A stretch of 64,000 nucleotides of DNA from positions 2,697 to 66,696 of the forward strand of contig JAGOSO010000005.1 in assembly GCA_018062285.1 (NCBI GenBank), in the 5' to 3' direction. This DNA comes from Minisyncoccota bacterium (lineage in GTDB: Bacteria > Patescibacteriota > Minisyncoccia > 2-02-FULL-40-12 > GWA2-44-9). Below, in pieces: positions 502 to 60,583 of the stretch (positions are counted from its first letter, which is position 1; every line of letters begins with the position of its first letter). The notes beneath the pieces were generated by a model. It had not been told where the DNA came from and ran no database searches. It was given only the letters and a program-made list of their open reading frames with translations. A program made the position numbers and the translations under genes.

Positions 502-1314
502 ATGGGCACTGATTCAATCGTTAAGAAAGTTGGCAAACTCCCAGGTAAAACGGTTGCCGTTTTTGCTGGTGTTCACGGCAACGAAAAGGTTGGTATTTTG
601 ACATTGGATAAATTTATAAAAGAATTAGAAATAGAATCAGGAATAGCTTATTTTGTTTATGCTAATCCACCAGCCATAGAAAAAAATGTTCGAATGGTGG
701 ACAAGAATCTAAACCGCCTATTTTTTAGAGAAAACACGGGGGACACCTATGAAGATAAAAGGGCCGTTGAATTGATGGATATTCTGGACGAGTGCGAAGC
801 TCTTTTGGACTTACACTCTTATAATAGTGAATCAGGCGATCAGTTCGCCATCACTGAAGAAAACGGCTACGACTTAGTCAGCAAGATGGATTTTCCTATT
901 GTGGCCAGCGGTTTTAGTAATTTGGGCGGGGGAACTGACGGCTATATGCACAAGAAGGGGAAGATCGGTATTTGTATTGAATGCGGAACAACCAATAAAC
1001 ATGAGTCATTCCTCGGCTTGGCCGAGAATTCTATTTATCAATTTTTACAGTATTTTGGTTGCATAGAAAAAAGAGTTGAGTACTCTAATGTTTCTCAGAG
1101 ACATCTTAGGGTTAAAGAGATTATCTCTAAGAAAAATGATAATTTTAGATTTTCAAAAGAGTTTAGAACCTTTGACCTTCTCCCTGCAGGCGAGCCGTTT
1201 ATGTTTGACGGTGACGTGCAAAGAACCGCCCTTAACAACGAGTGCATATTGTTCCCACAACCAAAAACAAAAGTCGGAGACGATGCTGGTATCATCGGTG
1301 AATTCATCGACTAG
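502..1314 (+). CDS. succinylglutamate desuccinylase/aspartoacylase (AstE/AspA) family zinc hydrolase
   Basis: The N-terminal motif VAVFAGVHGNEKVG (HGNE metal-binding signature) and the 270-aa length match the AstE_AspA family. Confidence 0.65.
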   Translation: MGTDSIVKKVGKLPGKTVAVFAGVHGNEKVGILTLDKFIKELEIESGIAYFVYANPPAIEKNVRMVDKNLNRLFFRENTGDTYEDKRAVELMDILDECEALLDLHSYNSESGDQFAITEENGYDLVSKMDFPIVASGFSNLGGGTDGYMHKKGKIGICIECGTTNKHESFLGLAENSIYQFLQYFGCIEKRVEYSNVSQRHLRVKEIISKKNDNFRFSKEFRTFDLLPAGEPFMFDGDVQRTALNNECILFPQPKTKVGDDAGIIGEFID

Positions 1315-1376: not shown

Positions 1377-2021
1377 TTGGGGTGTAACCAAACTAAGCAC
1401 CTGACGATGTTGCAGGAATTAATCGCAGCAGTCATCCTTGGTGTTATTGGCGGTGTTATACCCGGCCCAGTTTTGGCGGCAACTTTTACAGAGATAATTC
1501 AGTCTGGCTTCATGGGGAGTTGGCGAATTATTTGGTGGGCAACCATAGCCGAAACCTCTGTCGCATTAATAAACTTAATTCTCCTCTCATCCCTTGGCTT
1601 ATCCAAGGCTTTTTTCTACTCATTTTCATTTGTTGGCGCAATTGTTCTGCTTTGGATTGCCAAGCGGTTGTGGGCAATCGCAACTTTAGACATTGAACAC
1701 AAAATACATTTCGGGGGCTGGCAGATTGCAGCCATGATTTTTACGAATGGGGCTCTTTGGATGTTTTGGATAACTGTGTGTATACCAAAAGCCATTGCCC
1801 TTGGCCAACAAGTTCCTGGGGGTCAATATTTGTTTATTACTTTTTATGAAATTGCTTGGGTTGGAACCACTGTTGCTATTGCTTATGTGTTCCATTGTTT
1901 CCGTCACTTACTTTCTCACCCAAAAACAGTACCCATTATTTTTAAAATATTTACCTTAATTTTTGTTTATTTCGCTATAAATATGATTTATTCTGGAGTC
2001 TCCTTCTTCTTGAGTAGGTAA
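1377..2021 (+). CDS. polytopic membrane protein, LysE/RhtB-like exporter family (tentative)
   Basis: About 6 predicted TM segments. An N-terminal GVIGGVIPGPV (PGP) motif is characteristic of LysE-type translocators. The start could be the internal ATG at 1407. Confidence 0.4.
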   Translation: MGCNQTKHLTMLQELIAAVILGVIGGVIPGPVLAATFTEIIQSGFMGSWRIIWWATIAETSVALINLILLSSLGLSKAFFYSFSFVGAIVLLWIAKRLWAIATLDIEHKIHFGGWQIAAMIFTNGALWMFWITVCIPKAIALGQQVPGGQYLFITFYEIAWVGTTVAIAYVFHCFRHLLSHPKTVPIIFKIFTLIFVYFAINMIYSGVSFFLSR

Positions 2022-2115
2022 TATTATCATTCTTGACGAATTAAAAAAGTGATGTTAATCTCAGGCCAGTTTTTATAGCGAGACGAACCTTTAAAACTCG
2101 CAGAAGGGTAGAGTC

Positions 2116-3114
2116 ATGACCAAGGAGATAGTTTTGTCAGGCATCCGTGCGACGGCACGATTGCACTTCGGTAATTTCTTGGGGGCAGTGAGGAATTTCG
2201 TGGATTTCCAGTCGCAGGGCTATCAGGGTCTGTATTTCATCGCCGATCTTCACACTCTCACAACCCTGAAGGATCCGGAAGAGCTCCGTCGGAATCTCAT
2301 CGAGATCACCAAGGATTACCTCGCAGCTGGACTCGATCCGAACAAGTCGATCATCTACGCTCAGTCGAGTGTTCCGGAAATTTCGGAACTCAGTCTTCTT
2401 CTGAGTATGCTCCAGCCGATGAACGAACTTGAGGGCATCGCAACTCTCAAGGATCTTGTCCGCAACTCCAAGGAGAAGGTTAACCTCGGTATGCTCACGT
2501 ATCCTGTTTTGATGGCGGCTGATATCCTTGGTCCCCAGGCGACACTTGTGCCTGTCGGGGAAGATCAGGAGCCGAACGTCGAGCTGGCACGTGAGCTTGC
2601 TCGACGGTTCAACAACCGGTTTGGTCAAACGTTTGTGGTGCCGGAGATGATGAAAGACATGGTTATGGTTCCAGGCCTCGATGGCCGGAAGATGAGCAAG
2701 TCTGATTCCGACAACACAATCGACATCAATTACACGCGAGATGAAATTTCGAAGCGATATCATGCGCGAGGCGTCACTGATACTCAGAGGTTGAGGGTCT
2801 CCGATCCTGGAGATCCTTACAATCGTTGTCGCTCGGTTTATCCTGTGCACGAAATTGTGACACCATTTGAACGGGAAAAGAGAACCATTGCCAATCTTTG
2901 CCTTGGGGGCAATATCGGGTGCAGGACCTGTAAAGGGATTCTTGTTGACAGTATCGCTGCTGTTCTTGAACCGTTTCAGGCGGCTCGGGCTGATCTGGCT
3001 AGCAAGGATGCGATGGTCCGAGAAATTCTTCATGAGGGTGGTATCAGGGCTCGGGCAATCATTCGGCCCACGCTTGAAGCTGTTCAAGACAAGATGGGTG
3101 TTGTCGTGTACTAA
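2116..3114 (+). CDS. trpS: tryptophan--tRNA ligase (class I aaRS) with C-terminal Cys4 (Fe-S-type) motif
   Basis: HIGH-region LHFGNFLGA and KMSKS (RKMSKSD) are present. Length is 332 aa. The C-terminus has C-x23-C-x6-C-x2-C (NRCRSV...NLCLGGNIGCRTCKG). The SD sequence GAAGGG lies upstream. GC is about 52%. Confidence 0.9.
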   Translation: MTKEIVLSGIRATARLHFGNFLGAVRNFVDFQSQGYQGLYFIADLHTLTTLKDPEELRRNLIEITKDYLAAGLDPNKSIIYAQSSVPEISELSLLLSMLQPMNELEGIATLKDLVRNSKEKVNLGMLTYPVLMAADILGPQATLVPVGEDQEPNVELARELARRFNNRFGQTFVVPEMMKDMVMVPGLDGRKMSKSDSDNTIDINYTRDEISKRYHARGVTDTQRLRVSDPGDPYNRCRSVYPVHEIVTPFEREKRTIANLCLGGNIGCRTCKGILVDSIAAVLEPFQAARADLASKDAMVREILHEGGIRARAIIRPTLEAVQDKMGVVVY

Positions 3115-3136
3115 TTTCGACGAAACAAAAAACAAA

Positions 3137-3165
3137 GGGGCGACCATCTGGTCGCCCCTCTTTTA
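3137..3165 (+). terminator. rho-independent terminator after trpS
   Basis: Hairpin GGGGCGACC-ATCT-GGTCGCCCC followed by TCTTTT. Confidence 0.7.
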
Positions 3166-3167
3166 AT

Positions 3168-3198
3168 AAAAAAATGCCCTCCCGTTGGTAAGGGAGGG
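3168..3198 (-). terminator. terminator hairpin downstream of tRNA-Trp (minus strand)
   Basis: CCCTCCC-GTTGGTAA-GGGAGGG stem-loop. On the minus strand it is followed by CATTTTTTT. Confidence 0.5.
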
Positions 3199-3199
3199 T

Positions 3200-3274
3200 T
3201 GGCGGGCACTGGGAGAGTCGAACTCCCGTATGCGGTTTTGGAGACCGCTGTCCTAGCCACTGAACGAAGTGCCC
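3200..3274 (-). tRNA. trnW: tRNA-Trp (anticodon CCA), CCA end encoded
   Basis: The minus-strand sequence GGGCACT-TC-GTTC-AGTGGCTA-GGAC-A-GCGGT-CTCCAAA-ACCGC-ATAC-GGGAG-TTCGACT-CTCCC-AGTGCCC-G-CCA folds as a cloverleaf. It has a 7-bp acceptor stem, U8, a GG-containing D-loop, a TTCGACT T-loop, and an anticodon loop CU-CCA-AA. Confidence 0.85.
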
Positions 3275-3319
3275 GCACGAAGGTGCAGTGACAGCATTTT
3301 AGCTCAGAGCCTTATAAAA

Positions 3320-3364
3320 GTCAATTTTTAAATAAAACGGGCGGGACCAGAAGGTCCCGCCCGG
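3320..3364 (-). terminator. terminator after the GCS2-like gene (minus strand)
   Basis: CGGGCGGGACC-AGAA-GGTCCCGCCCG hairpin at 3338-3363. On the minus strand it is followed by TTTTATTTAAAAATT. Confidence 0.5.
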
Positions 3365-3368
3365 GGGT

Positions 3369-4130
3369 TTAAAGCAGCGCGTCTTTGCAGATCTGGTGAC
3401 ACCGAATGGCCCAGGCGAGAATTTCAGTCACGTCTGGCGTTGCGCCAAACATTCTGAATTCAATTGTGCCGTGAGTCGAAATGCGGATGATGTGCCAGCA
3501 GTTCCGTGGTTTCTTCCAGAACCCGTTCTTGTTGGCGTACTTCTCGAAATCGCCCCAGTTCTTGTAGGTGGGTGGCTGGAAATTCGGCGCCATGATCTTG
3601 TAGATCTTGAGGCGTTCGCCGTTGGATTTGTCGCCGGCTGCGCACAGTTCGGGGATGTGTTTGATGGCCGCGTTGTAGGCGCGAATGGCCTGTCTTGGCG
3701 AGCCCATACCGACGTGGACATGTGTGCCAGCGACCCGGCAAGCTGCCCGGATCTTTTCCACTGTCATATCCTTCGTGATTTTCTGGTATCGACCAGTTGG
3801 ATCGGGATAGATGTCGAGTGGCATGTCGAACGGAGCCACTTCTTGGTGGAGCACCTCGAAGCCAAGGCGCACCCGGTCTTTTTCCAACATGTTCCTTAGA
3901 TCGATGAGGGCATCACCGATCATCTGGACTGGATGGGGTTTGGTCCGAGTCTCCAGCTGGCAGGCTGAGAGTTCATATCCGTACAAGCCATTGTTGGGCA
4001 GTTCGGGAATGAACTTCGGAGCGAGTGGGGAGATGATTCCATCTTTGACGAAGAAGCATTCTCTTTCAACGCCAAGATGCAGATGTCTGTCTTTGTTGAA
4101 CTCAAACTTTCTGCGAAAGGCTGCTGACAT
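3369..4130 (-). CDS. carboxylate-amine ligase, glutamate-cysteine ligase family 2 (GCS2/YbdK-like), short form
   Basis: The N-terminal HLHLGVEREC (E-x-E), the central GTHVHVGMG, and the C-terminal GTIEFRMFGATPD all match GCS2/YbdK signature motifs. SD AGGAG lies 7 nt upstream of the ATG. GC is about 53%. Confidence 0.55.
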   Translation of the reverse strand: MSAAFRRKFEFNKDRHLHLGVERECFFVKDGIISPLAPKFIPELPNNGLYGYELSACQLETRTKPHPVQMIGDALIDLRNMLEKDRVRLGFEVLHQEVAPFDMPLDIYPDPTGRYQKITKDMTVEKIRAACRVAGTHVHVGMGSPRQAIRAYNAAIKHIPELCAAGDKSNGERLKIYKIMAPNFQPPTYKNWGDFEKYANKNGFWKKPRNCWHIIRISTHGTIEFRMFGATPDVTEILAWAIRCHQICKDALL

Positions 4131-4321
4131 GGGAGCTCCTGTCCTAATTGCTTGTTAAGTTGCTTGTCTTACTGGCCCCAAACTTAACATATTTTGATTT
4201 TTTTTGTCAACCAATATCAGGTTTTTTATTCGAGATTAATTATTATAATTTGTCAAATTCATAATAAAAGAGTAAAGTTGAGCCTAAGGTCATTTGTTGG
4301 TCCCACCGCAGCTATAAAATA

Positions 4322-4981
4322 ATGGAATACCCAATCAGAATTAATAAATATGTTAGAGAGCTAGGATTGGCTTCACGACGTGAGGCCGATCTTCTTGTTG
4401 AGGAAGGTAAGGTTTTTATCAATGGCAAAAAAGCAGAGGCAGGGACAATGGTCCAAGAAAGCGACAAAGTCGTGGTAAAAGGTGAACAAAAAAAGTTTGA
4501 ATATTTGGCTTACTATAAACCTCGTGGGTTAGCCACCCAGGACTTAAAAGGCAAAAAGAGCGTCATTACTCTTTGGGAAGAAAGAGGGCTTTATCCTATC
4601 GGAAGATTAGATAAAGAATCTGAAGGGCTTTTGCTTTTAACCAATGATGGCCGTTTTGCTCGTGAAGTTTTATCAAAAGACACTAAATACGAAAAAGAAT
4701 ACGTGGTTGAGGTAAAAGAAAATATTCGAGCCGGTATTCCTGACATTTTTGCATCAGGCATGAAGACAGAAGGTCTAGGTAAGTTGTTGCCAGCCAAAGC
4801 CAAGATTATAAACCCAAATACTCTATCCGTGATTTTGATTGAAGGTAAGCGCCATCAAATCAGAGTCATGCTCAGTGAACTCAAATACACAATCACTTCG
4901 CTCAAGCGAATTAGAATCGGTGATATTAAACTCGGCAGTTTGAGGGCTAGTCAGACTCGGGCAATTACGCCCAAGATCTAG
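4322..4981 (+). CDS. rRNA pseudouridine synthase, RsuA/RluB family (S4 domain + catalytic domain)
   Basis: N-terminal S4 RNA-binding region (IRINKYVRELGLASRREADLLVEEGKVFINGK) and the catalytic motif PIGRLDKESEGLLLLTNDG. Length 219 aa. Confidence 0.8.
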   Translation: MEYPIRINKYVRELGLASRREADLLVEEGKVFINGKKAEAGTMVQESDKVVVKGEQKKFEYLAYYKPRGLATQDLKGKKSVITLWEERGLYPIGRLDKESEGLLLLTNDGRFAREVLSKDTKYEKEYVVEVKENIRAGIPDIFASGMKTEGLGKLLPAKAKIINPNTLSVILIEGKRHQIRVMLSELKYTITSLKRIRIGDIKLGSLRASQTRAITPKI

Positions 4982-5838: not shown

Positions 5839-6867
5839 ATGGACAACACAGAACAACAATCGTTGATGAAAAAGTTCTTGACCCCAGAGGTCAAGGAGAA
5901 GCTGAAGGATGTCGTTTCTCCTTCTGGTTTAGTTTTGGCTGACCTGACTCGCTCTGGTGATGAGAACCCAGACAGCAGTGTCGGTGTCTATTCAGCCGAC
6001 GAGGAGTCCTACTCTTTGTTCGCGCCGTTGTTCGACCCTGTGATCAATGAATACCATGGTCATGGAACGGAAGATCAACACAAGAGAGATCTTGATATTG
6101 CACATCTCGGTGAGATTGGCGATCTTGACCCAACCGGGGAATCGATCGTTTCAACTCGTATCCGTGTCGGGCGCAATCTCAAGGGTTTCCCATTCGCTCC
6201 GGGGATTACCCGTGAACAGCGTTTGGAAGTTGAACGTCGCGTTGTCGATGCTCTTTCGACTCTCACCGGCGATTTGGCGGGTACCTACTATCCGCTCGCT
6301 GGCATGTCCGAAGAAGTTCGTCAAAAGCTACAGGATGATCATTTCTTGTTCAAGCAAGGAGATCGGTTCCTTGCAAGTGCTGGCGCCAATCGTGATTGGC
6401 CAGAAGGTCGTGGAATTTTTCATTCCGCCGACAAGCGTTTCTTGGTCTGGGTGAACGAAGAAGACCAGCTCCGCATCATTTCGATGCAACAGGGTGGCAA
6501 CATCCGTGAGGTCTTCGCTCGTCTCGCCACAGCAATCGAGACTCTCGAGAAGAAGCTCGAGTTCGCTTACTCTGATCACCTCGGGTATCTTTCGAGTTGT
6601 CCGACCAACCTTGGCACTGCCATGCGCGCTAGCGTGCATGTGAAGTTGCCACTCTTGAGTCAGGCGCCTGATTTCAAGGCCATCTGCGCCGAGATCGGTT
6701 TGTCGGTTCGAGGTGTGGATGGAGAACACTCTGAAAGCAAGGGTGGTGTCTATGACATCTCCAACAAGCGTCGTCTTGGCATCTCTGAAGTTCAGGGTGT
6801 GCTGAATGTCGCTAGTGGTGTCTCCAGCTTGATCGAAGACGAAAAAGAACTCGCTTCAAAGCAGTAA
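5839..6867 (+). CDS. ATP:guanido phosphotransferase, eukaryote-type arginine kinase (phosphagen kinase)
   Basis: Active-site CPTNLGT followed by MRASVHVKLP. Also SRIRVGRNLKGFPF, GTYYPLAGMSEEVRQKLQDDHFLFKQGDRFL, and GRGIFHSADKRFLVWVNEEDQLRIISMQQGG. All closely track metazoan/protist arginine kinase blocks rather than McsB. SD GAGGAG. GC is about 55%. Confidence 0.85.
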   Translation: MDNTEQQSLMKKFLTPEVKEKLKDVVSPSGLVLADLTRSGDENPDSSVGVYSADEESYSLFAPLFDPVINEYHGHGTEDQHKRDLDIAHLGEIGDLDPTGESIVSTRIRVGRNLKGFPFAPGITREQRLEVERRVVDALSTLTGDLAGTYYPLAGMSEEVRQKLQDDHFLFKQGDRFLASAGANRDWPEGRGIFHSADKRFLVWVNEEDQLRIISMQQGGNIREVFARLATAIETLEKKLEFAYSDHLGYLSSCPTNLGTAMRASVHVKLPLLSQAPDFKAICAEIGLSVRGVDGEHSESKGGVYDISNKRRLGISEVQGVLNVASGVSSLIEDEKELASKQ

Positions 6868-8113: not shown

Positions 8114-8727
8114 TGTGGGCCACTTGTTATCCTAATCATTGTTTTTGCGAAAGTCTGCACGTGGGGGCGGTGTTCCAGCCGGCGAATACGATTTCTTCGC
8201 TGGCTTTTGTTTTGGCGGGGATTTTTGTGGCGTATAAGTATCGAAACTCATGGGGCTATATTTATGCCGTGCTTTTGGGATTGATTGGGCTTGGTTCGGC
8301 CTACTATCACGCCCGATTAGATTTTGTTGGCCAAACTATTGATGTGGCGGGGATGTATTTCTTGGTGACCTTTGTTTTGTTGGCGGTTTTAAAACAAACT
8401 CGAAAATATTTTCTCGGTTATTTTTTGGCCGGGAATGCCGTTTTAATTTCAATTCTGGTTTCAGTGCCGGTTTTGCGCCGATACATTTTTACGGGATTGG
8501 TTTTGGCTTTGATTATTACGCTTTGGAAACAAAACCTTTTCAATAAATATTTCTGGGCTAGTCTTGCGACTCTCGTCATTGCGTTTATAATCTGGAGTTT
8601 GGATATCACGGGCGTTTGGTGTAATCCCAACAGTATCTTGCAAGGGCACGCCATTTGGCACATCCTAGGAGCAATCTCAGCGGTGTTCTTGTTTGAATCA
8701 ATTAGACCAGTGTTGAATAAAAATTAA
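8113..8727 (+). CDS. ceramidase-like integral membrane hydrolase (alkaline ceramidase/CREST superfamily)
   Basis: 7 predicted TM segments. Motifs NTISSLAF, YYHARLD and GHAIWHILGA match ceramidase-family conserved Ser/His/His positions. The start overlaps the upstream stop (TAATG). Confidence 0.5.
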   Translation: MWATCYPNHCFCESLHVGAVFQPANTISSLAFVLAGIFVAYKYRNSWGYIYAVLLGLIGLGSAYYHARLDFVGQTIDVAGMYFLVTFVLLAVLKQTRKYFLGYFLAGNAVLISILVSVPVLRRYIFTGLVLALIITLWKQNLFNKYFWASLATLVIAFIIWSLDITGVWCNPNSILQGHAIWHILGAISAVFLFESIRPVLNKN

Positions 8728-9236
8728 TGGCTTCATATACTTCACTAAAAGTTCAGTTGAGAGAAAGCGAGATGGCCGGTAAGGGCCTTTTTGCGATTGA
8801 GAAAATAAACAAAGATGAGATTGTTGCCGATTACACAAATGGCTTTGGGGAATATGTTGATTTAAAAAGAGCTAACGAGATTTATGATAGTGGTTTGGAT
8901 CACATGATTCAGATTGATGACGATTTGTATTTCGCCGCCACCAATGGCAGTGAGTCAGAAGATTCAGATCATATAAATCATTCTTGTAATTCTAATTGCG
9001 GGATCAAGAGCCCGCTGGGGGTTGTGGCAATGAGAGATATCGAACCAGGCGAAGAAATAACAGTTGATTATGCGATGATTGATTCGTCTGACTATGGCTT
9101 TGATTGTAAGTGTGGGTCCCCAGATTGTCGCGGCAGGGTTACTGGCGATGATTGGAAGATCCCAGAATTGCAAAATAGATATAAAGGATATTTTTCAGAT
9201 TACCTACAAAAGAAGATAGACTTATTAAATAAATGA
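8727..9236 (+). CDS. SET-domain protein (lysine methyltransferase fold) with post-SET Cys cluster
   Basis: NHSCNSNCG (NHSC motif), a GEEITVDY region, and post-SET CKCGSPDCRG. Confidence 0.8.
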   Translation: MASYTSLKVQLRESEMAGKGLFAIEKINKDEIVADYTNGFGEYVDLKRANEIYDSGLDHMIQIDDDLYFAATNGSESEDSDHINHSCNSNCGIKSPLGVVAMRDIEPGEEITVDYAMIDSSDYGFDCKCGSPDCRGRVTGDDWKIPELQNRYKGYFSDYLQKKIDLLNK

Positions 9237-10371: not shown

Positions 10372-11421
10372 ATGGATCAAGAGCAAATAAAAAATTTCAT
10401 TGAGGAGTACGGCTCAAAAAGAGAACAATATAAGAATTTCTCAATACGTCTAAAAAATATAATTGAAGATATTCTCAACGTTAAAGGCCTTAGTTATTTG
10501 TCGGTTGAGTGTCGGGCAAAATCATCAGTTAGTCTTGAGAAAAAATTAGAAAAATTATCTTTTGAAAGTTTGGGTGAAGTTCAAGATTTGGCCGGTGTCC
10601 GAATCATAACTTACGTTTATAAGGACATCGAGACAATAGAAAGCGTTATCGCTGAAAATTTTTTAGCAGAACAATTAAGTGTTGAAGATAGGTTGGGGAC
10701 AGACAGAGTCGGCTACAGATCCCATCATTGGCTAATCTCATTACCAGATAATCGTCTAAAATTGCCAGAGTATGAACAGTTTGGTGGCCTCAAGGCAGAG
10801 CTTCAGATTAGTACGGTTCTTCAACATGCATGGGCACAAATTGGGCATAAGCAGGTCTATAAACCAAGTGCTATTTTACCGCGTAAGATTAAAAGGAATT
10901 TCACATTATTGTCCGGTTTATTAGAAATAGCAGACAATGAGTTCAATCGAATATCAAATGAGATACTAGAACATCAACAAGAAGTTGTTAGTGAGACTGA
11001 AAAAGGGAATTTAGAAATACCAATCGATACTGTCTCTTTAAGGCAGTATTTCGATACCAATTTTAAAAGCATTAATAACATGGACCCAAGATTTGGTCCT
11101 CATGATGACATGGCAGAAGATATAATTGAAGAATTGCGAGATCTTGGGATAACAACATTGGCTCAACTCGACAATATTATACCGAAAGATTTTATGCAAA
11201 ACCTAGCGAGTGTAGATATGGGAGAAAAAAATTATTGCGGTTTATCTAGGAATATTATGGTCATTTATAATTACAAAGAATATTTTGAAAAAGCATGGAA
11301 GAATAAGTGGGTATCTGCATCAAAATCAGAAAGTAGCACAGGTGAATTATATAAGATATACGGGATAGATTATGATGAAATAATAAAGACTTATGGCTTG
11401 AGGGTTTCTGTAAAGAAGTAG
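10372..11421 (+). CDS. RelA/SpoT-homolog synthetase-domain protein (small alarmone synthetase-like) with ~180-aa uncharacterised C-terminal extension
   Basis: Synthetase motifs are present: ECRAKSSVSLEKKLEK (RxKxxxSxxxK), DLAGVRII, GYRSHHW, and ELQISTVLQHAWAQIGH. There is no HD hydrolase domain. 349 aa. Confidence 0.75.
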   Translation: MDQEQIKNFIEEYGSKREQYKNFSIRLKNIIEDILNVKGLSYLSVECRAKSSVSLEKKLEKLSFESLGEVQDLAGVRIITYVYKDIETIESVIAENFLAEQLSVEDRLGTDRVGYRSHHWLISLPDNRLKLPEYEQFGGLKAELQISTVLQHAWAQIGHKQVYKPSAILPRKIKRNFTLLSGLLEIADNEFNRISNEILEHQQEVVSETEKGNLEIPIDTVSLRQYFDTNFKSINNMDPRFGPHDDMAEDIIEELRDLGITTLAQLDNIIPKDFMQNLASVDMGEKNYCGLSRNIMVIYNYKEYFEKAWKNKWVSASKSESSTGELYKIYGIDYDEIIKTYGLRVSVKK

Positions 11422-16102: not shown

Positions 16103-18448
16103 ATGAATGATGTTGAATCTATCAAGAAATATGTTCGGGCAGCAAACTACGTTTCGGCAGCACAGATTTATTTGAGGGATAACTTTTTATTATCTGATAA
16201 ACTCACTTCGGATGATATTAAACCTCGCTTGCTTGGTCATTGGGGGACTTGCCCAGGGATTAACTTTTTATACGCCAACCTTAACTATTTAATTAAAAAG
16301 CACAGCATCGACATGATGTTTGTTTTGGGTCCAGGGCATGGCTTTCCAGCATTGCAGGCGAATTTGTACATGGAAGGTACGTTGAATAAGTTCTATCCAT
16401 CCGCTATCGCTAACGTTGAAGGTTTGGGCTATCTCGCTAGTCAGTTTAGTTGGCCATATGGTTTTCCAAGTCACTCTAACCCAGGCGCACCAGGCGTAAT
16501 TCTTGAAGGCGGGGAATTGGGTTATTCATTATCGACTTCTTATGGTGCTATTCTGGATAACCCAGACTTGATTGTGACTTGTTTGGTGGGTGATGGTGAA
16601 GCCGAAACTGGTCCAACGGGCACAGCTTGGCATTTGAATAAATTTATTGACCCAGCAACGAATGGGGCCGTGTTGCCAGTGCTTCATTTGAATGGCTACA
16701 AGATTTCTGGCCCAACTATTTTTGGTAGAATGTCGAATCGAGAATTAAAGTCCTTGTTCTATGGTTATGGCTATGAGCCTTTAATTGTCGAAGGCACCGA
16801 CAAGGTGATTTACGAAAAAATGGTAGACACTTTGGACAACGCCTACCGCATGATTCGTTCTATCCAGACCTCAGCCCGCAGCGGTCAGGCGATTGTGTCA
16901 CCACGTATGCCGATGATTATTTTGCGCACACCAAAAGGTTGGACAGGTATAAAAAAAATAAAGGGTGAAAAAATTGAAGGCAATGCTTTGGCCCACCAAG
17001 TTGTGGCGCCGTTAGCCAAATCTGATAAGACAGAATTAAAAGCTTTAGAAAAATGGTTGCAGTCTTACAAAATTGAAGAATTATTTAATCCCGAGACTGG
17101 TTTTTGTGAAGAAGTTAAATCTATCATCCCTGAAGAAGGATTTAAAATGGGTTCAAATCGGCACACTTTTGGTGGAGAAGTCACAAAAGATTTAATTTTA
17201 CCAAAGGTGGATGAGTTTGCTGAAGATTCTGCGGTTCCCGGTACGGTTGGTTCCAGTTCTATGGTCCGAACTGGTCTATATTTGAACGAAGTTTTTAAAT
17301 TAAATAAAGAGCAAGAAAATTTTAGATTATTCTCGCCAGATGAAACCTATTCCAATAAATTAGACACAGTTTTCCAGACTACTTCACGCGCTTTTGTGTG
17401 GCCAATCAAAGAATGGGACAAAGACATGAAGCCTAATGGCCGAGTAATTGAAATGCTTAGTGAACATTCTTTGCAAGGTTTGATGCAGGGCTATGTTTTA
17501 ACAGGCCGACATGGAATCTTTGCGACCTATGAAGCCTTTGTGCAGATTGTTTCCAGTATGTTGGATCAATACGCCAAGTTTTTGAAACAATCTAAAGAAT
17601 TCCCATGGCGTGGAGCAGTCCCATCAATCAATTATATTTTGACTTCTTCTGGTTGGCGCCAAGAACATAACGGTTTCTCGCACCAGAATCCCGGATTCAT
17701 CACCGATATTTTACAAAAGAATGGTTGCAATGCTCATGTGTATTTCCCGCCAGATGGTAATTCAACCTTGGCTGTAGTGGAAAAATGTTTAAATTCCAAA
17801 AATGGCATCAATGTTATCGTGGCCGGTAAAACCCTTGAACCACGTTGGCTAACCCCAGAGCTAGCGGCTCGTCAGTTAGAAAACGGGATGATGATTTGGG
17901 ATTTCGCCAGCGATGCGAGCCCGGACATTGTTTTCAGTGGTGTTGGAGAATATTTGACTAAGGAAGCTTTGGCGGCAATGACGATGATCAAGAATCACAC
18001 CCCAGAAGTGAAGATCAGGTTCGTAAGCATCATGGAGTTGTCTTCTTTGGGTATGGGTAACGCTGATTGCAAAGAGCCATTAAGATTTGATGAATATTTC
18101 ACAAGTGATAAGCCGGTAATATTTAATTTCCACGGTTACCCTCAAACCTTAAAACAGATTTTGTTTGATTCAGGCGAAGCCAGTTCTCGTTTCTCCGTTC
18201 ATGGCTATATTGAAAACGGTTCTACGACCACGCCATTCGATATGCATATCCGTAACCAGACCAGTCGTTATCATTTGGTCATTGATGCTTATGAAAGATT
18301 AATGAAGAGTGGGGTAGTGGACGCCAACAAAGCAGATGATATTATTGCTCAATATAAAACCAAGATTCAACAGCACAGCGAATTCATTCGTAAGAATGGC
18401 GTCGACCCTGAAGAAATTGACCAATGGGAATGGAAAAGAAAAATTTAG
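16103..18448 (+). CDS. xfp: xylulose-5-phosphate/fructose-6-phosphate phosphoketolase
   Basis: 781 aa. Phosphoketolase signature EGGELGYS. TPP-binding GDGEAETG. TATAAT lies 9 nt upstream of the ATG. Confidence 0.9.
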   Translation: MNDVESIKKYVRAANYVSAAQIYLRDNFLLSDKLTSDDIKPRLLGHWGTCPGINFLYANLNYLIKKHSIDMMFVLGPGHGFPALQANLYMEGTLNKFYPSAIANVEGLGYLASQFSWPYGFPSHSNPGAPGVILEGGELGYSLSTSYGAILDNPDLIVTCLVGDGEAETGPTGTAWHLNKFIDPATNGAVLPVLHLNGYKISGPTIFGRMSNRELKSLFYGYGYEPLIVEGTDKVIYEKMVDTLDNAYRMIRSIQTSARSGQAIVSPRMPMIILRTPKGWTGIKKIKGEKIEGNALAHQVVAPLAKSDKTELKALEKWLQSYKIEELFNPETGFCEEVKSIIPEEGFKMGSNRHTFGGEVTKDLILPKVDEFAEDSAVPGTVGSSSMVRTGLYLNEVFKLNKEQENFRLFSPDETYSNKLDTVFQTTSRAFVWPIKEWDKDMKPNGRVIEMLSEHSLQGLMQGYVLTGRHGIFATYEAFVQIVSSMLDQYAKFLKQSKEFPWRGAVPSINYILTSSGWRQEHNGFSHQNPGFITDILQKNGCNAHVYFPPDGNSTLAVVEKCLNSKNGINVIVAGKTLEPRWLTPELAARQLENGMMIWDFASDASPDIVFSGVGEYLTKEALAAMTMIKNHTPEVKIRFVSIMELSSLGMGNADCKEPLRFDEYFTSDKPVIFNFHGYPQTLKQILFDSGEASSRFSVHGYIENGSTTTPFDMHIRNQTSRYHLVIDAYERLMKSGVVDANKADDIIAQYKTKIQQHSEFIRKNGVDPEEIDQWEWKRKI

Positions 18449-19506
18449 TTATTAATTTAGGTAGTTCGTCCAAGAAGTGTGCGCTTTATGGTGAAGCCGA
18501 ACTTTGTGGCATTCATTTAGAAAAAACCAGCACCGGATTCATCGGTAACTTCTGGCAGGGTGCTGACAAAAAAGAAATTGAAGTAACCGATTCTGATTAC
18601 AATGATGCGGGCATCTTTTTGATTAAAATTTCTGGCACTGATATTGCTGATATCGCCAAGATAGGGATTAGGGTCGTTGCCCCTGGAACTTTTTTCCAAG
18701 AAGACAGATTGATTGATGATACCTACGTTTCTAAATTAACTGAGGCTCAGACCATGGCTCCGTTGCACATTGCTCCTGTCCTTGAGGAATTAAAAAAGAT
18801 TAAGGCTTGGTCCGGAGAGATTCCATTGATGGGAATTTCTGACAGTGCTTTTTATAAATCAATGCCAATTGAGGCCAAGTTGTATGGTTTGCCTAAAGAC
18901 GTAACTGAACAAAACGAAATTTACCGCTACGGCTATCACGGTATTTCGATGGCTTCAGTTTTAAGTACATTACAAAAATCAGAAGGCGGTATTCCTGAAA
19001 AAATAATCATCTGTCATTTGGGTAGTGGTTCCACAATCACCGCATTAAAGAATGGCCAGCCAGTTGATACTTCGATGGGCTTTACGCCTTTGGAGGGCGT
19101 ACCAATGGGTTCGCGCGTCGGCAATATTGATGCTTCAGCTGTTTTGTATCTTTTGAAAAAGGGGATGGATGCCAATTCTCTAGAAGAAATGTTTTATAAA
19201 AAATCTGGCTTGTTGGGCTTGAGTGGTCAGACACCTTTTGTAAAAGAATTAATTGATTTAGAAAAATCAGGTGACGCTAATGCAACCCAAGCCTTATTTG
19301 TGTACGCTCGTGCTGTTAAAAAATATATAGGTGCTTATTCTGCCTTATTGGGTGGAGTTGATTTGATTGTCTTCACGGCGACAATCGGTGAACGCTCCGA
19401 CTATATGCGCGACAAAATTACTTCTGGCTTAGAATACTTAAATACCAAAACTCTCGTCGTCCTCACAGACGAAATGTCCGAAATAGCCTCTCGACTAAAG
19501 TCATAA
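18430..19506 (+). CDS. ackA: acetate/propionate-family kinase (acetate kinase)
   Basis: NLVINLGSSSKKCALY (ASKHA N-terminus), YGYHGISM, HLGSGS, DTSMGFTPLEG, and GVDLIVFTATIGERS. The start overlaps the xfp 3' end by about 19 nt. Confidence 0.8.
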   Translation: MEKKNLVINLGSSSKKCALYGEAELCGIHLEKTSTGFIGNFWQGADKKEIEVTDSDYNDAGIFLIKISGTDIADIAKIGIRVVAPGTFFQEDRLIDDTYVSKLTEAQTMAPLHIAPVLEELKKIKAWSGEIPLMGISDSAFYKSMPIEAKLYGLPKDVTEQNEIYRYGYHGISMASVLSTLQKSEGGIPEKIIICHLGSGSTITALKNGQPVDTSMGFTPLEGVPMGSRVGNIDASAVLYLLKKGMDANSLEEMFYKKSGLLGLSGQTPFVKELIDLEKSGDANATQALFVYARAVKKYIGAYSALLGGVDLIVFTATIGERSDYMRDKITSGLEYLNTKTLVVLTDEMSEIASRLKS

Positions 19507-19818: not shown

Positions 19819-21333
19819 ATGGACAAGAGAAAAGCCACAGGAGTAATCCTTACCCTAGTCGGTGCCGGCATCGGCGTTTGGGTCAGTCTGATCATCGCTG
19901 ACATTCTGACGTTCTGGTGGGTCTACTCAAGTATCACCAACGTCATGTCTGATTACGGCATCAGCGAATATATCGGCAAGATTATTGCCGTTGTGTTCGC
20001 TGCCATGGTCTGCATGGTCATCAACAAGATTCTGGCCAGCATGGCCAAGCGAAACAAGAAATGGGTCCCGATGTTGGCAGGCCTCATGGCGGCGTGGTTC
20101 GTGGTCATGTACTTTGTCTCATCGCCTTACACATCAAGCTTGTTCAATCCTTTTTCTGGGAAAGCGCAGGCCGTGTACCTGAAAATGCCTGATGGGAAGA
20201 TTAAGGCTTTCCCCAAGGGCTTGAAGTTCGATCCTGACACAGGCAAACCTCTGAAGGACTTCGATCCGGCAACGGCCGAAGAGTTTCAGAAGCAGGTTGG
20301 CGCCAAGAAAACATCCTCGAGCTATTTTGGTGATTCGTCATCCATAAAACTCACGAGTTTTATGGATGACATTGAAATTCGTGTAGACAAAGTTCAAGTT
20401 GCACCCGATCGAACGGTTTTACATTTTTCTGCTGGGCCCAACAGTTCGCTCGATGCTTCAGTCGTAATGCCCAGGTCTATTTATCTGACAGACGATAATG
20501 GACGGGTGATCAATTACGTTTCTGATGATGTTGGTTACGAAAACCAGACTATCGCGCTTATTTACGATCGGAAGATACGCCCTGTCAAAGTCGGTGAGAT
20601 TTTTCACTATACGATGACTTTCGGAGCCCTGAGAGAAGGTACTAGCCAGTTGGTATTGCATTACAATCAAGAGGGAACAACAGGTTCGGATGCTGACCTT
20701 ACGGGCTTATTTTCTATGGCCGAAAATATTCCGGCCATACCCGCTCCACCTCCACCTTCTCCGCCTCCGCCATCACCACCAGTGCTGGATAAAGTTGACC
20801 TACCACCTCCACCGAAGGAAACAAGAGATGATCCAACTCTCTATGTTCTGAGTCTTGGTGCGGAGACAACTCGTTTCCATGTCAAAGACATCATCACAAG
20901 AACAGTGAAGGTTAATCGGTATCGTCGTCCCGAAGAAGCTTTTAAGCTGTATGGGTGGATCAACGAAACCAGTGAGTGCAAATTTTCCTCTGTGCCCGCT
21001 GCTGGGCCAGCCGAGGTGGAGATAACTTTTTTCAGAATCGACCCCGATGAAGTTCAGGTTGGGAAAGATTTTGAGAAGGTTTATGATGTTCTGGGTTTGA
21101 AACCAGATCCATACGCCGCAGCTGCTGCGAATGAAGCTGACCCAGATTTGGCCAGAAAATATCCAAGTATTACTCAGTGGCGACATGGTCAGAATGACTG
21201 GCAGTATCAAGTCGTTATTGCCACGACTGATTACAGGGATAAAATCACCTTCTTTTGTGGAGACACTCCCGCATCTTGGTCTTCAATTACTTCGGGGAGA
21301 ACTATTTGGTGGTACACTGGCATCAAGAAATAG
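19819..21333 (+). CDS. membrane protein with proline-rich linker and C-terminal globular domain (hypothetical)
   Basis: SD AAGGAG. 3-4 N-terminal TM helices. PAPPPPSPPPPSPPVLDKVDLPPPP. GC is about 55%. Confidence 0.5.
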   Translation: MDKRKATGVILTLVGAGIGVWVSLIIADILTFWWVYSSITNVMSDYGISEYIGKIIAVVFAAMVCMVINKILASMAKRNKKWVPMLAGLMAAWFVVMYFVSSPYTSSLFNPFSGKAQAVYLKMPDGKIKAFPKGLKFDPDTGKPLKDFDPATAEEFQKQVGAKKTSSSYFGDSSSIKLTSFMDDIEIRVDKVQVAPDRTVLHFSAGPNSSLDASVVMPRSIYLTDDNGRVINYVSDDVGYENQTIALIYDRKIRPVKVGEIFHYTMTFGALREGTSQLVLHYNQEGTTGSDADLTGLFSMAENIPAIPAPPPPSPPPPSPPVLDKVDLPPPPKETRDDPTLYVLSLGAETTRFHVKDIITRTVKVNRYRRPEEAFKLYGWINETSECKFSSVPAAGPAEVEITFFRIDPDEVQVGKDFEKVYDVLGLKPDPYAAAAANEADPDLARKYPSITQWRHGQNDWQYQVVIATTDYRDKITFFCGDTPASWSSITSGRTIWWYTGIKK

Positions 21334-22730: not shown

Positions 22731-23333
22731 GTGGAACATGTCAGGCTCGCCATCGCAGCGGCGGTTGTCATTATCCATGGCACCGCATTCTTTTTCTACA
22801 CCAAGCAGATGAAGCAGGGGCTGACTCGCCCCAACATCACGACTTGGAGCATTACGATGTTTCTCATGGTGCTCAACACCCTGACGTTTCGGGAGATGAG
22901 CAAGGACTTGATAGCAACGGCGCAATTGTTTATCGGCACCACAGGGTGTTCGATTGTTTTCTTTTACGCGCTAGCGAAAGGAAAGTTCTCGGCCCCAGGC
23001 AGAACGGGAGGTTGGTCACTGTTGTTTGGGGTCATTGCCGCAATCGTGTGGTATATGTTTCGAGAAGCATCATGGGCAAACATGATTGTTCTCGTGGCAT
23101 TGTTCGTGGCTCTTATACCGACTTGGGACGGCGTGTATCACGACCCATTTAAAGAGATGCCTCGATCTTGGGCTATGTGGGCATTCGCCTATCTATTAAC
23201 GACGGTGAACATGGTTCTTAATCCGTCGGTCCAACTCGTCGCTCTGGTCAATCCAATTTCTGCAGTGATTGCCCATGGGGTGGTTGCTGTTCTTTGTTCG
23301 GAATTCCGTAAGCGTAATTTCAGGATGCGCTGA
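22731..23333 (+). CDS. integral membrane protein (hypothetical), GC-rich
   Basis: About 6 TM helices. GTG start as in the ORF track. The start is uncertain. Confidence 0.4.
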   Translation: MEHVRLAIAAAVVIIHGTAFFFYTKQMKQGLTRPNITTWSITMFLMVLNTLTFREMSKDLIATAQLFIGTTGCSIVFFYALAKGKFSAPGRTGGWSLLFGVIAAIVWYMFREASWANMIVLVALFVALIPTWDGVYHDPFKEMPRSWAMWAFAYLLTTVNMVLNPSVQLVALVNPISAVIAHGVVAVLCSEFRKRNFRMR

Positions 23334-23349
23334 GGCGCGAGGAGAGGAT

Positions 23350-23754
23350 ATGGCTGTAGGTGGCAAGGCAATCGAGAAGATTTTCTATGCTTCATTGCTG
23401 GGTGTAATCATCATTTCCATCGTGACGGTTTTGTCTCTGACGAGACAGAATCAAACCCTCAAGTCAGAGAATGCGGTGCTCAGGCAGAGTCTCGCTCAGC
23501 TCGCTCGCGAGAACACCGAATCAAAGATTACGCATATCCCCCATGAGTACGACACTGCAGGCAAGGGCATCATCGGATTGGTGCTCGATGGTCGTTACAT
23601 TTTTCAAGTCCCCGGTGCCGCTTCAATAGTTGCCAACGATGTCTCGACTACCATTTTCAAAAGTTATCATGGTGGTCCACCGCCAGCGAAGATTTATGAA
23701 GTAATGCAAGACGGTAAGAAACGTCTCGGTTATGTTCAGGTACTACCTAGGTAG
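23350..23754 (+). CDS. membrane-anchored hypothetical protein (135 aa)
   Basis: SD GAGGAGAGG lies immediately upstream of the ATG at 23350. One TM helix. The ORF-track start at 23269 is less likely. Confidence 0.45.
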   Translation: MAVGGKAIEKIFYASLLGVIIISIVTVLSLTRQNQTLKSENAVLRQSLAQLARENTESKITHIPHEYDTAGKGIIGLVLDGRYIFQVPGAASIVANDVSTTIFKSYHGGPPPAKIYEVMQDGKKRLGYVQVLPR

Positions 23755-50560: not shown

Positions 50561-50648
50561 TCCTGGTCTCGTTTACTTAAACTTTTTTTCGTGATAATCT
50601 GGGCCATGTTTTGTTGTGGCTCTTTGTCAATTTAACCAAGGCGGAGTG

Positions 50649-59172: not shown

Positions 59173-59212
59173 AAAAAGCGGGGACCCGTAGGTCCCCGCC
59201 AGTGTTTTTTCT
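59173..59212. terminator. bidirectional terminator
   Basis: GCGGGGACC-CGTA-GGTCCCCGC followed by CAGTGTTTTTTCT. Confidence 0.7.
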
Positions 59213-60491: not shown

Positions 60492-60583
60492 TTTCAAGGT
60501 CCTTTCCTTGGGACATATAGTACAACATTGTAGGCTTTTTAGCAACCTAGTTCTTTGCCTTTATATAATGTATATTGTAGATC

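Follow-up and report, generated by a model that had tools for sequence, protein, structure and literature searches.

The 64-kb stretch of DNA analysed here (the window; contig JAGOSO010000005.1 of a Minisyncoccota bacterium, overall GC 41%) carries three genes side by side: trpS, which encodes a tryptophanyl-tRNA synthetase (TrpRS), its cognate tRNA-Trp gene and a gene for a small carboxylate-amine ligase. A first-pass annotation had read this trio as a charging module that was co-transferred within compositionally foreign DNA, or else as the mark of a tRNA-associated integration site. We lean instead towards the view that the trio is the organism's own tryptophan-charging locus and did not arrive as a cassette from elsewhere. 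Its layout is found repeatedly within the lineage and is, for the most part, not the mark of a recent import; the high GC content of the patch that holds the genes stays unexplained. The features of the locus are as follows, with the strand in brackets.

2116..3114 (+): trpS, bacterial-type tryptophan-tRNA ligase, 332 aa (TIGR00233, PF00579, PDB 2G36)
2827..2931 (+): codons of C238-x23-C262-x6-C269-x2-C272, predicted [4Fe-4S] ligands (alignment with Thermotoga maritima TrpRS)
3136..3159 (+): terminator-like hairpin after trpS, bidirectional-looking, as it scored on the minus strand too (hairpin scoring)
3198..3177 (-): terminator-like hairpin and T-run immediately 3' of tRNA-Trp (hairpin scoring)
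3200..3274 (-): tRNA-Trp(CCA) with G1-C72, discriminator G73 and an encoded CCA end (ARAGORN, Rfam)
3324..3296 (-): sigma-70-like promoter match upstream of tRNA-Trp, 10/12 positions (consensus match only)
3363..3338 (-): terminator-like hairpin after the ligase gene, 11 bp stem with 10 GC pairs (hairpin scoring)
3369..4130 (-): mini YbdK/GCS2-like carboxylate-amine ligase, 253 aa (predicted fold, motifs)

The host is a bacterium of the Parcubacteria/Paceibacteria type within the candidate phyla radiation (CPR). Its LepA was taken from L001, a contig of the same genome that overlaps the window and also supplied about 6 kb of sequence beyond the window, and finds its best matches in Yanofskybacteria, Paceibacterota and Parcubacteria at graded identities (93, 89, 88, 87 ...). 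The sister genome is L002, with a LepA identity of 93%. The next-closest genomes by LepA are L083-L085 (87-89%), and L087 is a more distant relative. L087 and L084 come from the same metagenome assembly at a GC of 0.47 and 0.46, respectively, and may be one genome.

The tryptophanyl-tRNA synthetase and its cysteine motif

The trpS product is a class Ic aminoacyl-tRNA synthetase that passes the TIGR00233 equivalog model (253.7 bits against a cut-off of 176.75) and matches PF00579 at 3.8e-55. Its best match in the Protein Data Bank (PDB) is 2G36, the T. maritima TrpRS (TmTrpRS), with an E value of 6e-62 and an alignment over the full length. In this alignment, C238, C262, C269 and C272 fall column for column on the TmTrpRS cluster ligands Cys236, Cys259, Cys266 and Cys269, and the position of Arg224, which in TmTrpRS contacts a cluster sulfide (PMC2954223), is also arginine, within 'TDTQRLRVSDPG'. 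The KMSKS motif occupies residues 192-196 and the HIGH motif reads HFGN (LHFGN, residues 16-20, aligned with LHIGH of TmTrpRS). The four motif cysteines are the only cysteines of the protein, as they are in most related loci checked, and the x23 spacer lies inside the published motif class C-x(21-24)-C-x6-C-x2-C (PMC2954223). The aligned ligands and arginine bear out the earlier assignment to the Fe-S-motif class of TrpRS. The further statement that trpS ends with this motif holds for its presence, spacing and alignment with the Fe-S ligands, but not for a terminal position, since the motif is placed in the C-terminal anticodon-binding third and about 60 residues remain beyond it.

All 120 of the top 120 TrpRS homologues (65-86% identity) carry the motif, with the x23 spacer in 119, and an Fe-S-type TrpRS is therefore the lineage norm in this part of the CPR. 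Those top matches that are named (Pacebacteria, Parcubacteria group, Kaiser-, Giovannoni- and Liptonbacteria) are all CPR bacteria. A class of enzyme known mainly from thermophiles and anaerobes is thereby extended to serve as the default TrpRS in a large Patescibacteria group. Judged from its sequence, the window TrpRS probably binds a [4Fe-4S] cluster beside its anticodon-binding surface, although the role of this cluster is unknown even in TmTrpRS (PMC2954223).

When set against TmTrpRS (TM0492, PDB 2G36; Han et al. 2010, PMC2954223), the window protein shares the four cysteines, Arg224, KMSKS and the domain in which the motif lies. Its first spacer is one residue longer, its host is a mesophilic-type CPR bacterium and not a thermophile, and it lacks tryptophan, of which TmTrpRS has several residues. 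About three would be expected here from the composition of neighbouring proteins. The same absence is seen in 72 of the 120 closest homologues, and Trp-free TrpRS proteins of CPR bacteria have been noted earlier (PMC5370408). An enzyme of this composition fits a need for TrpRS synthesis under tryptophan starvation.

No T-box or other leader was found around trpS, as a scan of the whole window at Rfam gathering thresholds gave tRNA alone. Two antisense open reading frames (ORFs), 2137..3147 (-; 336 aa) and 3396..3899 (+; 167 aa), are not taken for genes but for shadows of GC-rich coding DNA, which is poor in stop codons. The former had outcompeted the real trpS in crude longest-ORF calling.

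The tRNA-Trp gene and transcription signals

The tRNA-Trp gene, with a 3' end of ...GTGCCC-G-CCA, is called by ARAGORN and scores 60.3 bits with Rfam RF00005, for which the gathering score is 29. From the trpS stop (3114) to the 3' end of the tRNA (3200) there are 85 nt, with the two genes on opposite strands and convergent. These results confirm the first description of a canonical tRNA-Trp(CCA) 85 bp downstream of trpS, and the terminator that it was said to own is recognizable as the hairpin and T-run at 3198..3177 (-). There is no other tRNA within the 64-kb window. The discriminator G73 follows the identity rule for bacterial tRNA-Trp (PMC5370408) and is present in all tRNA-Trp genes checked across related loci.

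A pairing of TrpRS with tRNA-Trp is already known from CPR bacteria, where an operon of tRNA-Trp(A73) with TrpRS-A, an archaeal/eukaryotic-type TrpRS, has been laterally transferred (Mukai et al. 2017, PMC5370408). The same work describes Trp-free synthetases and reports that some TrpRS-A2 proteins bear a four-Cys Fe-S motif. The present locus is like that operon in its CPR host and in having a TrpRS gene that adjoins the cognate tRNA-Trp gene. It differs in that its TrpRS is of the bacterial type (TIGR00233), its tRNA carries G73, the genes are convergent and no ORF1 partner is present. Moreover, the operon constitutes an extra, archaeal-type pair, whereas the window trpS is the lineage-typical copy. 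Given the bacterial G73, the locus is therefore not an archaeal-type tRNA-Trp(A73)/TrpRS-A operon.

A mini YbdK-like ligase

Sequence comparison places the ligase below every curated threshold concerned. PF12224 was the sole hmmscan entry (19.6 bits, cut-off 22), PF04107 appeared as a weak precomputed match, and the scores for TIGR02050 (53.9 bits, cut-off 176.4) and NF010043 (61, cut-off 409) fall well short. The predicted structure is far more informative. An AlphaFold (AF2) model made from a 30-sequence alignment has a pLDDT of 96.3, and its top Foldseek matches are 1R8G and 1TT4 (YbdK; probability 1.0, TMq 0.76); next come plant glutamate-cysteine ligase and glutamine synthetases, also at probability 1.0. 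The family profile matches YbdK with an E value of 5e-4 over YbdK residues ~6-275. Furthermore, the motifs GVERE, GTHVHIG and GTIEFR align with GIELE, GQHVHVG and GTVEVR of YbdK, in columns that are invariant in 30 homologues. Despite the sub-threshold sequence scores, the model clearly points to a YbdK-like protein of the glutamine-synthetase fold. The earlier description of a short GCS2-like ligase is upheld by fold and motifs, but not by the sequence-family thresholds. The protein has no counterpart of the C-terminal ~120 residues of YbdK, nor does it show the full-length architecture of ~370 aa with a helical region at the C-terminus.

The family to which the protein belongs is small, has clear-cut limits and is restricted to the CPR. 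It comprises 686 representatives at E <= 1e-3 among 1.84 billion, of which 160 remain at E <= 1e-30. Most of the best 150 homologues are 245-290 aa long, and the named family members are all CPR. Five cysteines are invariant in the 30-sequence alignment (C57, C131, C211, C244 and C248), with a C-x3-C arrangement on the last helix, and these may form a metal or redox site. We found no literature on this family in CPR bacteria or on its link with trpS.

YbdK itself is a carboxylate-amine ligase of the GCS2 family and acts weakly as a gamma-glutamyl:cysteine ligase. The mini-ligase shares Glu/His/Arg motifs on the catalytic sheet with E. coli YbdK and the Salmonella homologue (1R8G, 1TT4), but the identity is just 17-18%, the protein has 253 aa as opposed to about 372 aa, and it contains the five family-invariant cysteines. 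It is also distinct from YbdK in that a gene for a hydrolase or cyclotransferase almost always accompanies its own. Similar pairs are known that make and break gamma-glutamyl linkages, each consisting of a ligase of the glutamine synthetase (GS) fold and a hydrolase, as in PuuA/PuuD and EgtA/EgtC. The gamma-glutamyl cycle likewise couples glutamate-cysteine ligase with gamma-glutamylcyclotransferase. What the mini-ligase has in common with these systems is an ATP-dependent GS-fold ligase genetically paired with an enzyme that removes gamma-glutamyl or N-acyl groups. It is much smaller than their ligases, and the genes to which the pair is linked are trpS and tRNA-Trp, not those of polyamines, ergothioneine or glutathione. 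We infer that it carries out ATP-dependent formation of a gamma-glutamyl- or N-acyl-type amide and that its partner cleaves the product.

A recurrent neighbourhood

To describe this pairing, and the arrangement of the locus in other species, the genes that flank the trio are also needed.

502..1314 (+): AstE/AspA-family zinc deacylase-like protein, 270 aa, GC 40% (PF24827, 7e-20)
1407..2021 (+): membrane protein, 204 aa as in L001, no Pfam match; the longest ORF runs from 1377 (ORF call)
4322..4981 (+): RluF/RsuA-like pseudouridine synthase (rluB) with S4 and PseudoU_synth_2 domains, normal GC (domain matches)
L001:6142-6213: tRNA-Gln(CTG), about 235 bp left of window position 1 (tRNA call)

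A scan with the ligase profile, restricted to one genome per GTDB species, yielded 80 loci with at most 6 kb of flank on each side. Essentially all of them are labelled Patescibacteria or carry doubtful automatic labels. A trpS gene lies within 6 kb of the ligase in 36 of the 80 loci, where chance would give about one (assuming ~10 kb per locus and ~1 Mb genomes). Seventeen loci have a tRNA-Trp gene, which accounts for 17 of the 41 tRNAs found in these loci. Genes for AspRS/AsnRS-like and TyrRS-like proteins, as identified from their sequences, occur in only 6 and 4 of the loci, respectively, and even those trpS neighbours with 33-39% identity still pass TIGR00233. Recurrence in so many genomes upholds the earlier impression that the grouping of trpS and tRNA-Trp with the ligase is more than chance. 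Dependence of the linkage on the Cys motif can be rejected, as about ten of the 36 linked TrpRS genes are without it.

The second consistent feature of the ligase loci is an amide-cleaving enzyme. Among the 79 loci with a recovered ligase ORF, such an enzyme is encoded directly beside the ligase in 66, and nearly all of these pairs are co-directional. The partners are AstE/AspA-like (44), GGCT/AIG2-like (10), M20 (8) or GATase_4 proteins of the EgtC/YafJ-like type (4). By ORF clustering, the AstE family is present in 48 of the 80 loci, and in 43 of 79 its gene comes directly downstream in the same direction. Most often the order is LIG> AstE> tRNA-Trp> <trpS (LIG, ligase), with the membrane protein known from the window sometimes next in line (L006, L007). 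The window and L002 contain a rearranged version, AstE> membrane> trpS> <tRNA-Trp <LIG, in which AstE is on the far side of trpS. Thus, the gene that elsewhere is the usual operon partner of the ligase here lies two genes away from it. Distant PDB matches of its product are succinylglutamate desuccinylase, aspartoacylase and aspartoacylase-2 (3NH4). The membrane gene accompanies trpS in L002, L006 and L007, with tblastn identities of 79% in L002 and 60-61% in L006 and L007.

When the view is centred on trpS, 17 metagenome loci offer at least 4 kb on both sides. Among these, the ligase is present in 5, AstE in 8 and tRNA-Trp in 6. A convergent tRNA-Trp gene 61-85 bp after trpS, as in the window, is also found in L090, L106 and L107. 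In 14 of the 17 loci (among L088-L167), the gene immediately downstream of trpS encodes a CM_2-methyltransferase fusion. This protein of ~383 aa joins a type II chorismate mutase (PF01817) to a class I S-adenosylmethionine (SAM) methyltransferase, and its gene begins 20-90 bp after trpS (for example, L087:1569-2720 and L016:4194-5345); it is absent from the window. The arrangement suggests an operon with trpS, and the fusion protein could have a bearing on tryptophan or on tRNA-Trp modification.

Some species hold more than one TrpRS. In L004, L005, L033, L051 and L070, two TrpRS genes are present within about 12 kb near the ligase. One type has the Cys motif and is 47-68% identical to the window TrpRS, and the other is motif-less and only 35-38% identical.

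A GC-rich patch in an AT-shifted clade

The patch spans 2100-4150, from the start of trpS to the start of the ligase gene, and the outer intergenic DNA on both sides has 28% GC. Values of 51.5% for trpS, 53.1% for the ligase gene and 50-54% for the patch overall agree with the earlier view that the trio sits in GC-rich DNA (then given as 52-55%). The foreign origin that was read into this composition is mostly not sustained, because L002 shares the patch. GC content at third codon positions (GC3) is 0.565 in trpS and 0.657 in the ligase gene, compared with a window median of 0.38. In L002 the corresponding values are 0.64 and 0.69, compared with 0.32-0.38 in its core genes. Patchy GC is found across the window, as 9 of its 55 ORFs have a GC3 of about 0.50 or more; an arginine kinase, a B12-radical SAM enzyme and a C-methyltransferase are encoded among them.

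Comparison with the next-closest genomes indicates which genes have changed. In the window genome and L002, the GC3 of core and flanking genes is 0.32-0.47. The core genes for LepA, RF, FtsE and FtsX alone have 0.32-0.43, as against 0.47-0.66 in L083-L085, whose overall GC is 46-48%. As these outgroups are the GC-richer genomes, the shift towards AT took place in the window/L002 clade, and trpS and the ligase gene stayed clade-typical. The shift is lineage-wide and amounts to about 15-20 points at third codon positions; trpS and the ligase gene are exempt from it, for a cause that is without explanation. Across species, GC3 on average exceeds that of neighbouring ORFs only slightly, by 0.05 in trpS (82% of loci) and by 0.04 in the ligase gene (69%), and it is lower by 0.07 in AstE.

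A simple lag in amelioration does not account well for these values. About 80% of 4-fold sites have apparently turned over since the window and L002 lineages split. By our estimate from a simple model, in which each such site is redrawn from equilibrium, the present values could result from decay alone only if the ancestral GC3 had been 0.83 or higher. Gene-specific maintenance of GC therefore seems to be needed, whether or not there was an old transfer. Codon selection and biased gene conversion at a recombining locus are possible causes. We consider translational selection alone unconvincing, given that G- and C-ending codons are both raised and that the core LepA, RF and FtsE genes are not GC-rich.

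Vertical history or transfer

One argument for a resident locus comes from the sister genome. L002 has the same order as the window, AstE-membrane-trpS-tRNA-Trp-ligase-rluB-...-lexA, with identities of 85% for TrpRS, 72-73% for the ligase and 66-94% for flanking genes. Identity at 4-fold sites is 40-41% in the trio, and the flanks range from 0.28 to 0.69 with most values at about 0.4. As divergence from L002 is equal in the trio and its flanks, the trio is as old as its surroundings. TrpRS also tracks other genes in the comparison with L087, where its identity of 70% stands beside 74% for ArgK, 71% for an HI0933-like protein and 53% for an AlkZ-like protein.

Trees and database matches give a similar picture. 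In a neighbour-joining tree of TrpRS, the window/L002 branch has a root-to-tip distance of 0.675, against a median of 0.674, and it lies outside all 118 other top matches without a specific donor clade. The best matches of TrpRS and of the ligase are of the CPR/Parcubacteria type, and hence of the same broad group as the LepA matches of the host. Together with the sharing of the trio by L002 at flank-equal divergence, the bacterial G73 and GC that is patchy window-wide, these matches leave the proposal of a foreign, co-transferred charging module mostly unsupported. The first-pass annotation had itself named a TrpRS congruent with the host lineage, together with GC equally patchy across the genome, as speaking against a foreign module, and the present results are of that kind.

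Across loci, identities to the window copies co-vary between trpS and the ligase gene (Spearman 0.62, p 0.002), which speaks for the earlier reading of these genes as a set. No such relation exists between the ligase and AstE genes (0.04), and for this reason AstE was dropped as a vertical control for the ligase and trpS. The AstE family probably brings together subfamilies or paralogues (two copies occur in L011), and we do not read its behaviour as proof of separate transfer.

The trio belongs to a larger block that extends from tRNA-Gln to lexA, and this spans 5.2-6.4 kb in the window genome and L002. It contains two small ORFs, AstE, the membrane gene, trpS, tRNA-Trp, the ligase gene and rluB, and half of its genes have normal GC. 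The pseudouridine synthase gene is divergent from the ligase gene and is the last gene of the 5.2-kb block before lexA. The tRNA-Gln(CTG) gene follows ftsX in all five related genomes, and the genes downstream of it differ (L001/L002, L083, L084 and L085). No recombinase or integrase domain was found in the Pfam-scanned proteins of the block, and the two small ORFs that open it on the left have none on record. Nor did a search for att-type repeats produce a match to the 3' end of tRNA-Gln in the window, and the flanking repeats are only pairs of 14-16 nt, a length expected by chance. Hence, the suggestion of a tRNA-associated integration site finds nothing in its favour at tRNA-Trp, and only the variable site at tRNA-Gln, which lies outside the window, gives it weak support.

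Competing explanations

From these observations on gene identity, motif alignment, synteny, recurrence and composition, we can propose how the locus might work, with Fe-S binding, ligase chemistry and the cause of GC retention as its conjectural parts. The Trp-free, bacterial-type TrpRS would hold a [4Fe-4S] cluster near its anticodon-binding surface and would charge the product of the adjacent tRNA-Trp gene (CCA, G73). The tRNA would be transcribed from its own promoter, convergent with trpS, and would stop at its own terminator. By ATP-dependent ligation, the mini-ligase would probably make an amide of the gamma-glutamyl or N-acyl type, and the AstE-like enzyme encoded elsewhere in the block could cleave it. 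The cassette of ligase and amide-cleaving enzyme, together with tRNA-Trp and trpS, represents a recurrent Paceibacteria neighbourhood that has been rearranged in the window. The GC-rich patch would then be a property of trpS and the ligase gene that was kept since before the split from L002, while other genes drifted towards AT.

A number of findings weigh against this resident-locus reading, which we hold as the most likely one, with moderate confidence. After L002, TrpRS identity drops abruptly from 86% to 71%, whereas LepA identity declines in the graded manner given above. The TrpRS genes of the L083-L085 genomes were looked for and not found. Five related loci hold two TrpRS paralogues, and while no second trpS or tRNA-Trp was seen in ~70 kb of the genome, a copy elsewhere is possible. 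In L083, the tRNA-Gln gene (L083:15616-15687) is 46 bp from lexA and the block is absent, and the 5.2-kb block was therefore moved, gained or lost at some time. With regard to composition, the GC3 excess in the window (+0.2 to +0.3) is far above the cross-species average, the edges of the patch are sharp, and G- and C-ending codons are both raised, like the codon usage of a whole genome. This last pattern is how a transfer from a GC-richer relative would be expected to look.

Many of these same findings favour an old replacement within the CPR. Under this scenario, the AT-shifted ancestor of the window genome and L002 acquired the trio, or the entire 5.2-kb block, from a GC-richer Paceibacteria relative, its own copy was displaced, and the patch is an incompletely ameliorated remnant. 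The sharp GC edges, the rise in both G- and C-ending codons, the gap in TrpRS identity and the absence of the block from the tRNA-Gln/lexA site in L083, which is variable in L084 and L085 as well, are all in line with such an event. So is the GC3 of 0.57-0.69, which equals the genome-wide GC3 of GC-richer relatives, and so is the co-variation of trpS with the ligase gene and not of the ligase gene with AstE. Moreover, transfer of a tRNA-Trp/TrpRS pair is documented in CPR bacteria (PMC5370408). Nevertheless, AstE, the membrane gene and rluB of the same block have normal GC, divergence between the window and L002 is alike inside and outside the patch, TrpRS has a normal branch length and no identifiable donor clade, and neither an integrase nor an att repeat is present. 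Active maintenance of GC seems to be required in either case, and there is therefore no need to invoke transfer. On balance, we regard a replacement of this kind as unlikely, although it deserves to be taken seriously.

A further proposal, which does not exclude a resident locus, is that the genes are functionally coupled. The ligase and hydrolase might act on tryptophan supply or on the tryptophan-charging machinery, and selection would keep the genes together. For example, gamma-glutamyl- or N-acyl-tryptophan might be made and broken for salvage or buffering in an auxotroph that is short of tryptophan, or else tRNA-Trp or TrpRS might be modified. The linkage survives rearrangement, a change of strand and the presence of two TrpRS clades with and without the motif, and the preference for trpS (36 of 80 loci) over AspRS/AsnRS-like (6) and TyrRS-like (4) genes is matched by the share of tRNA-Trp among the tRNAs of the ligase loci. 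Other points in its favour are the two TrpRS paralogues that surround the cassette in five loci, and the Trp-free TrpRS, as would be expected where tryptophan is limiting (PMC5370408).

Also to be counted for coupling is the nature of the usual partner enzyme: the AspA family includes aspartoacylase-2/ACY3, which deacylates N-acyl aromatic amino acids, even if the match of the AstE-like protein to 3NH4 is distant. Against these points, the evidence is contextual throughout, the species are phylogenetically non-independent and CPR genomes retain long syntenic blocks. More than half of the ligase loci lack a trpS gene inside 6 kb, and the commonest partner on the trpS side is the CM_2-methyltransferase fusion (14 of 17 loci) and not the ligase (5 of 17). 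The ligase, tRNA and trpS genes each have their own terminator-like site, with a promoter-like site for the tRNA in addition, and the literature that we found is silent on a link between the ligase and trpS. For these reasons, functional coupling appears to us rather improbable. We view with equal reserve, as a doubtful extension, the notion of a CPR-specific system, functionally tied to tryptophan charging, that would consist of the ligase and an interchangeable partner, which may be AstE/AspA-like, GGCT-like, M20 or GATase_4. Such a system could supply a Trp-free, Fe-S TrpRS in a Trp-starved auxotroph by way of the salvage or buffering cycle, or it could modify tRNA-Trp or TrpRS. If true, this tie would explain a recurrent 'Trp island' of Paceibacteria that consists of the cassette, tRNA-Trp, one or two TrpRS genes and the CM_2-methyltransferase fusion. 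The GC retention of trpS and the ligase gene might then reflect selection on, or recombination at, the island.

Lastly, recent integration of a mobile island or phage remnant, with a tRNA gene serving for attachment, would suit a GC-rich patch beside a tRNA and a variable region downstream of tRNA-Gln in relatives, but this idea is close to refuted by the lack of any integrase, recombinase or phage gene in the block, by the lack of a direct repeat of the tRNA-Gln 3' end or another long flanking repeat, by the presence of the trio in L002 at flank-equal divergence, and by the essential housekeeping nature of trpS and tRNA-Trp, of which the ~70 kb examined has no other copy.

Returning to the resident locus, what looked like a synthetase, its cognate tRNA and a ligase in foreign DNA is best seen as a lineage-typical arrangement and not as a transfer event. 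The TrpRS is one more protein of the TmTrpRS Fe-S class and the tRNA is an ordinary bacterial tRNA-Trp, and so the finding as originally put is largely ordinary. Some novelty is confined to the linkage of ligase and hydrolase with trpS, which is apparently undescribed, and to the GC retention, which has no explanation at present. These leave two small open problems, namely a compact ligase/hydrolase cassette linked to trpS and tRNA-Trp, and a gene pair that keeps its clade-typical GC. The case also advises caution before GC patches are taken for signs of horizontal transfer where the base composition of a CPR genome is shifting.

Other genes of the window

Additional ORFs with high GC3 (0.50-0.61) occur at 19819..21333, 22731..23754, 50616..52133 and 59211..60545 (-). 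Their identities include a DUF5643-like protein, two ORFs that match no family, a radical SAM enzyme of the B12-binding type and a C-methyltransferase (PF08421/PF08484). These are probably accessory or transferred genes, and those for the radical SAM enzyme and the C-methyltransferase adjoin a large glycosyltransferase cluster (39-58 kb).

Downstream of the block, 5839..6867 (+) encodes a metazoan-type arginine (phosphagen) kinase of 342 aa (PF02807 and PF00217; GC3 0.54). Arthropod arginine kinases in the PDB match it at about 390 bits, and bacterial McsB at about 88 bits. L002 has no such gene at the syntenic site, and L087 has a 74%-identical homologue. It looks like a eukaryote-like phosphagen kinase that circulates in CPR bacteria. 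Further along, the stretches 8727..9236, 10372..11421 and 16103..19506 encode, respectively, a bacterial SET-domain protein, a RelA_SpoT small alarmone synthetase-like protein and a phosphoketolase and acetate kinase pair, which looks like the ordinary content of a small fermentative genome.

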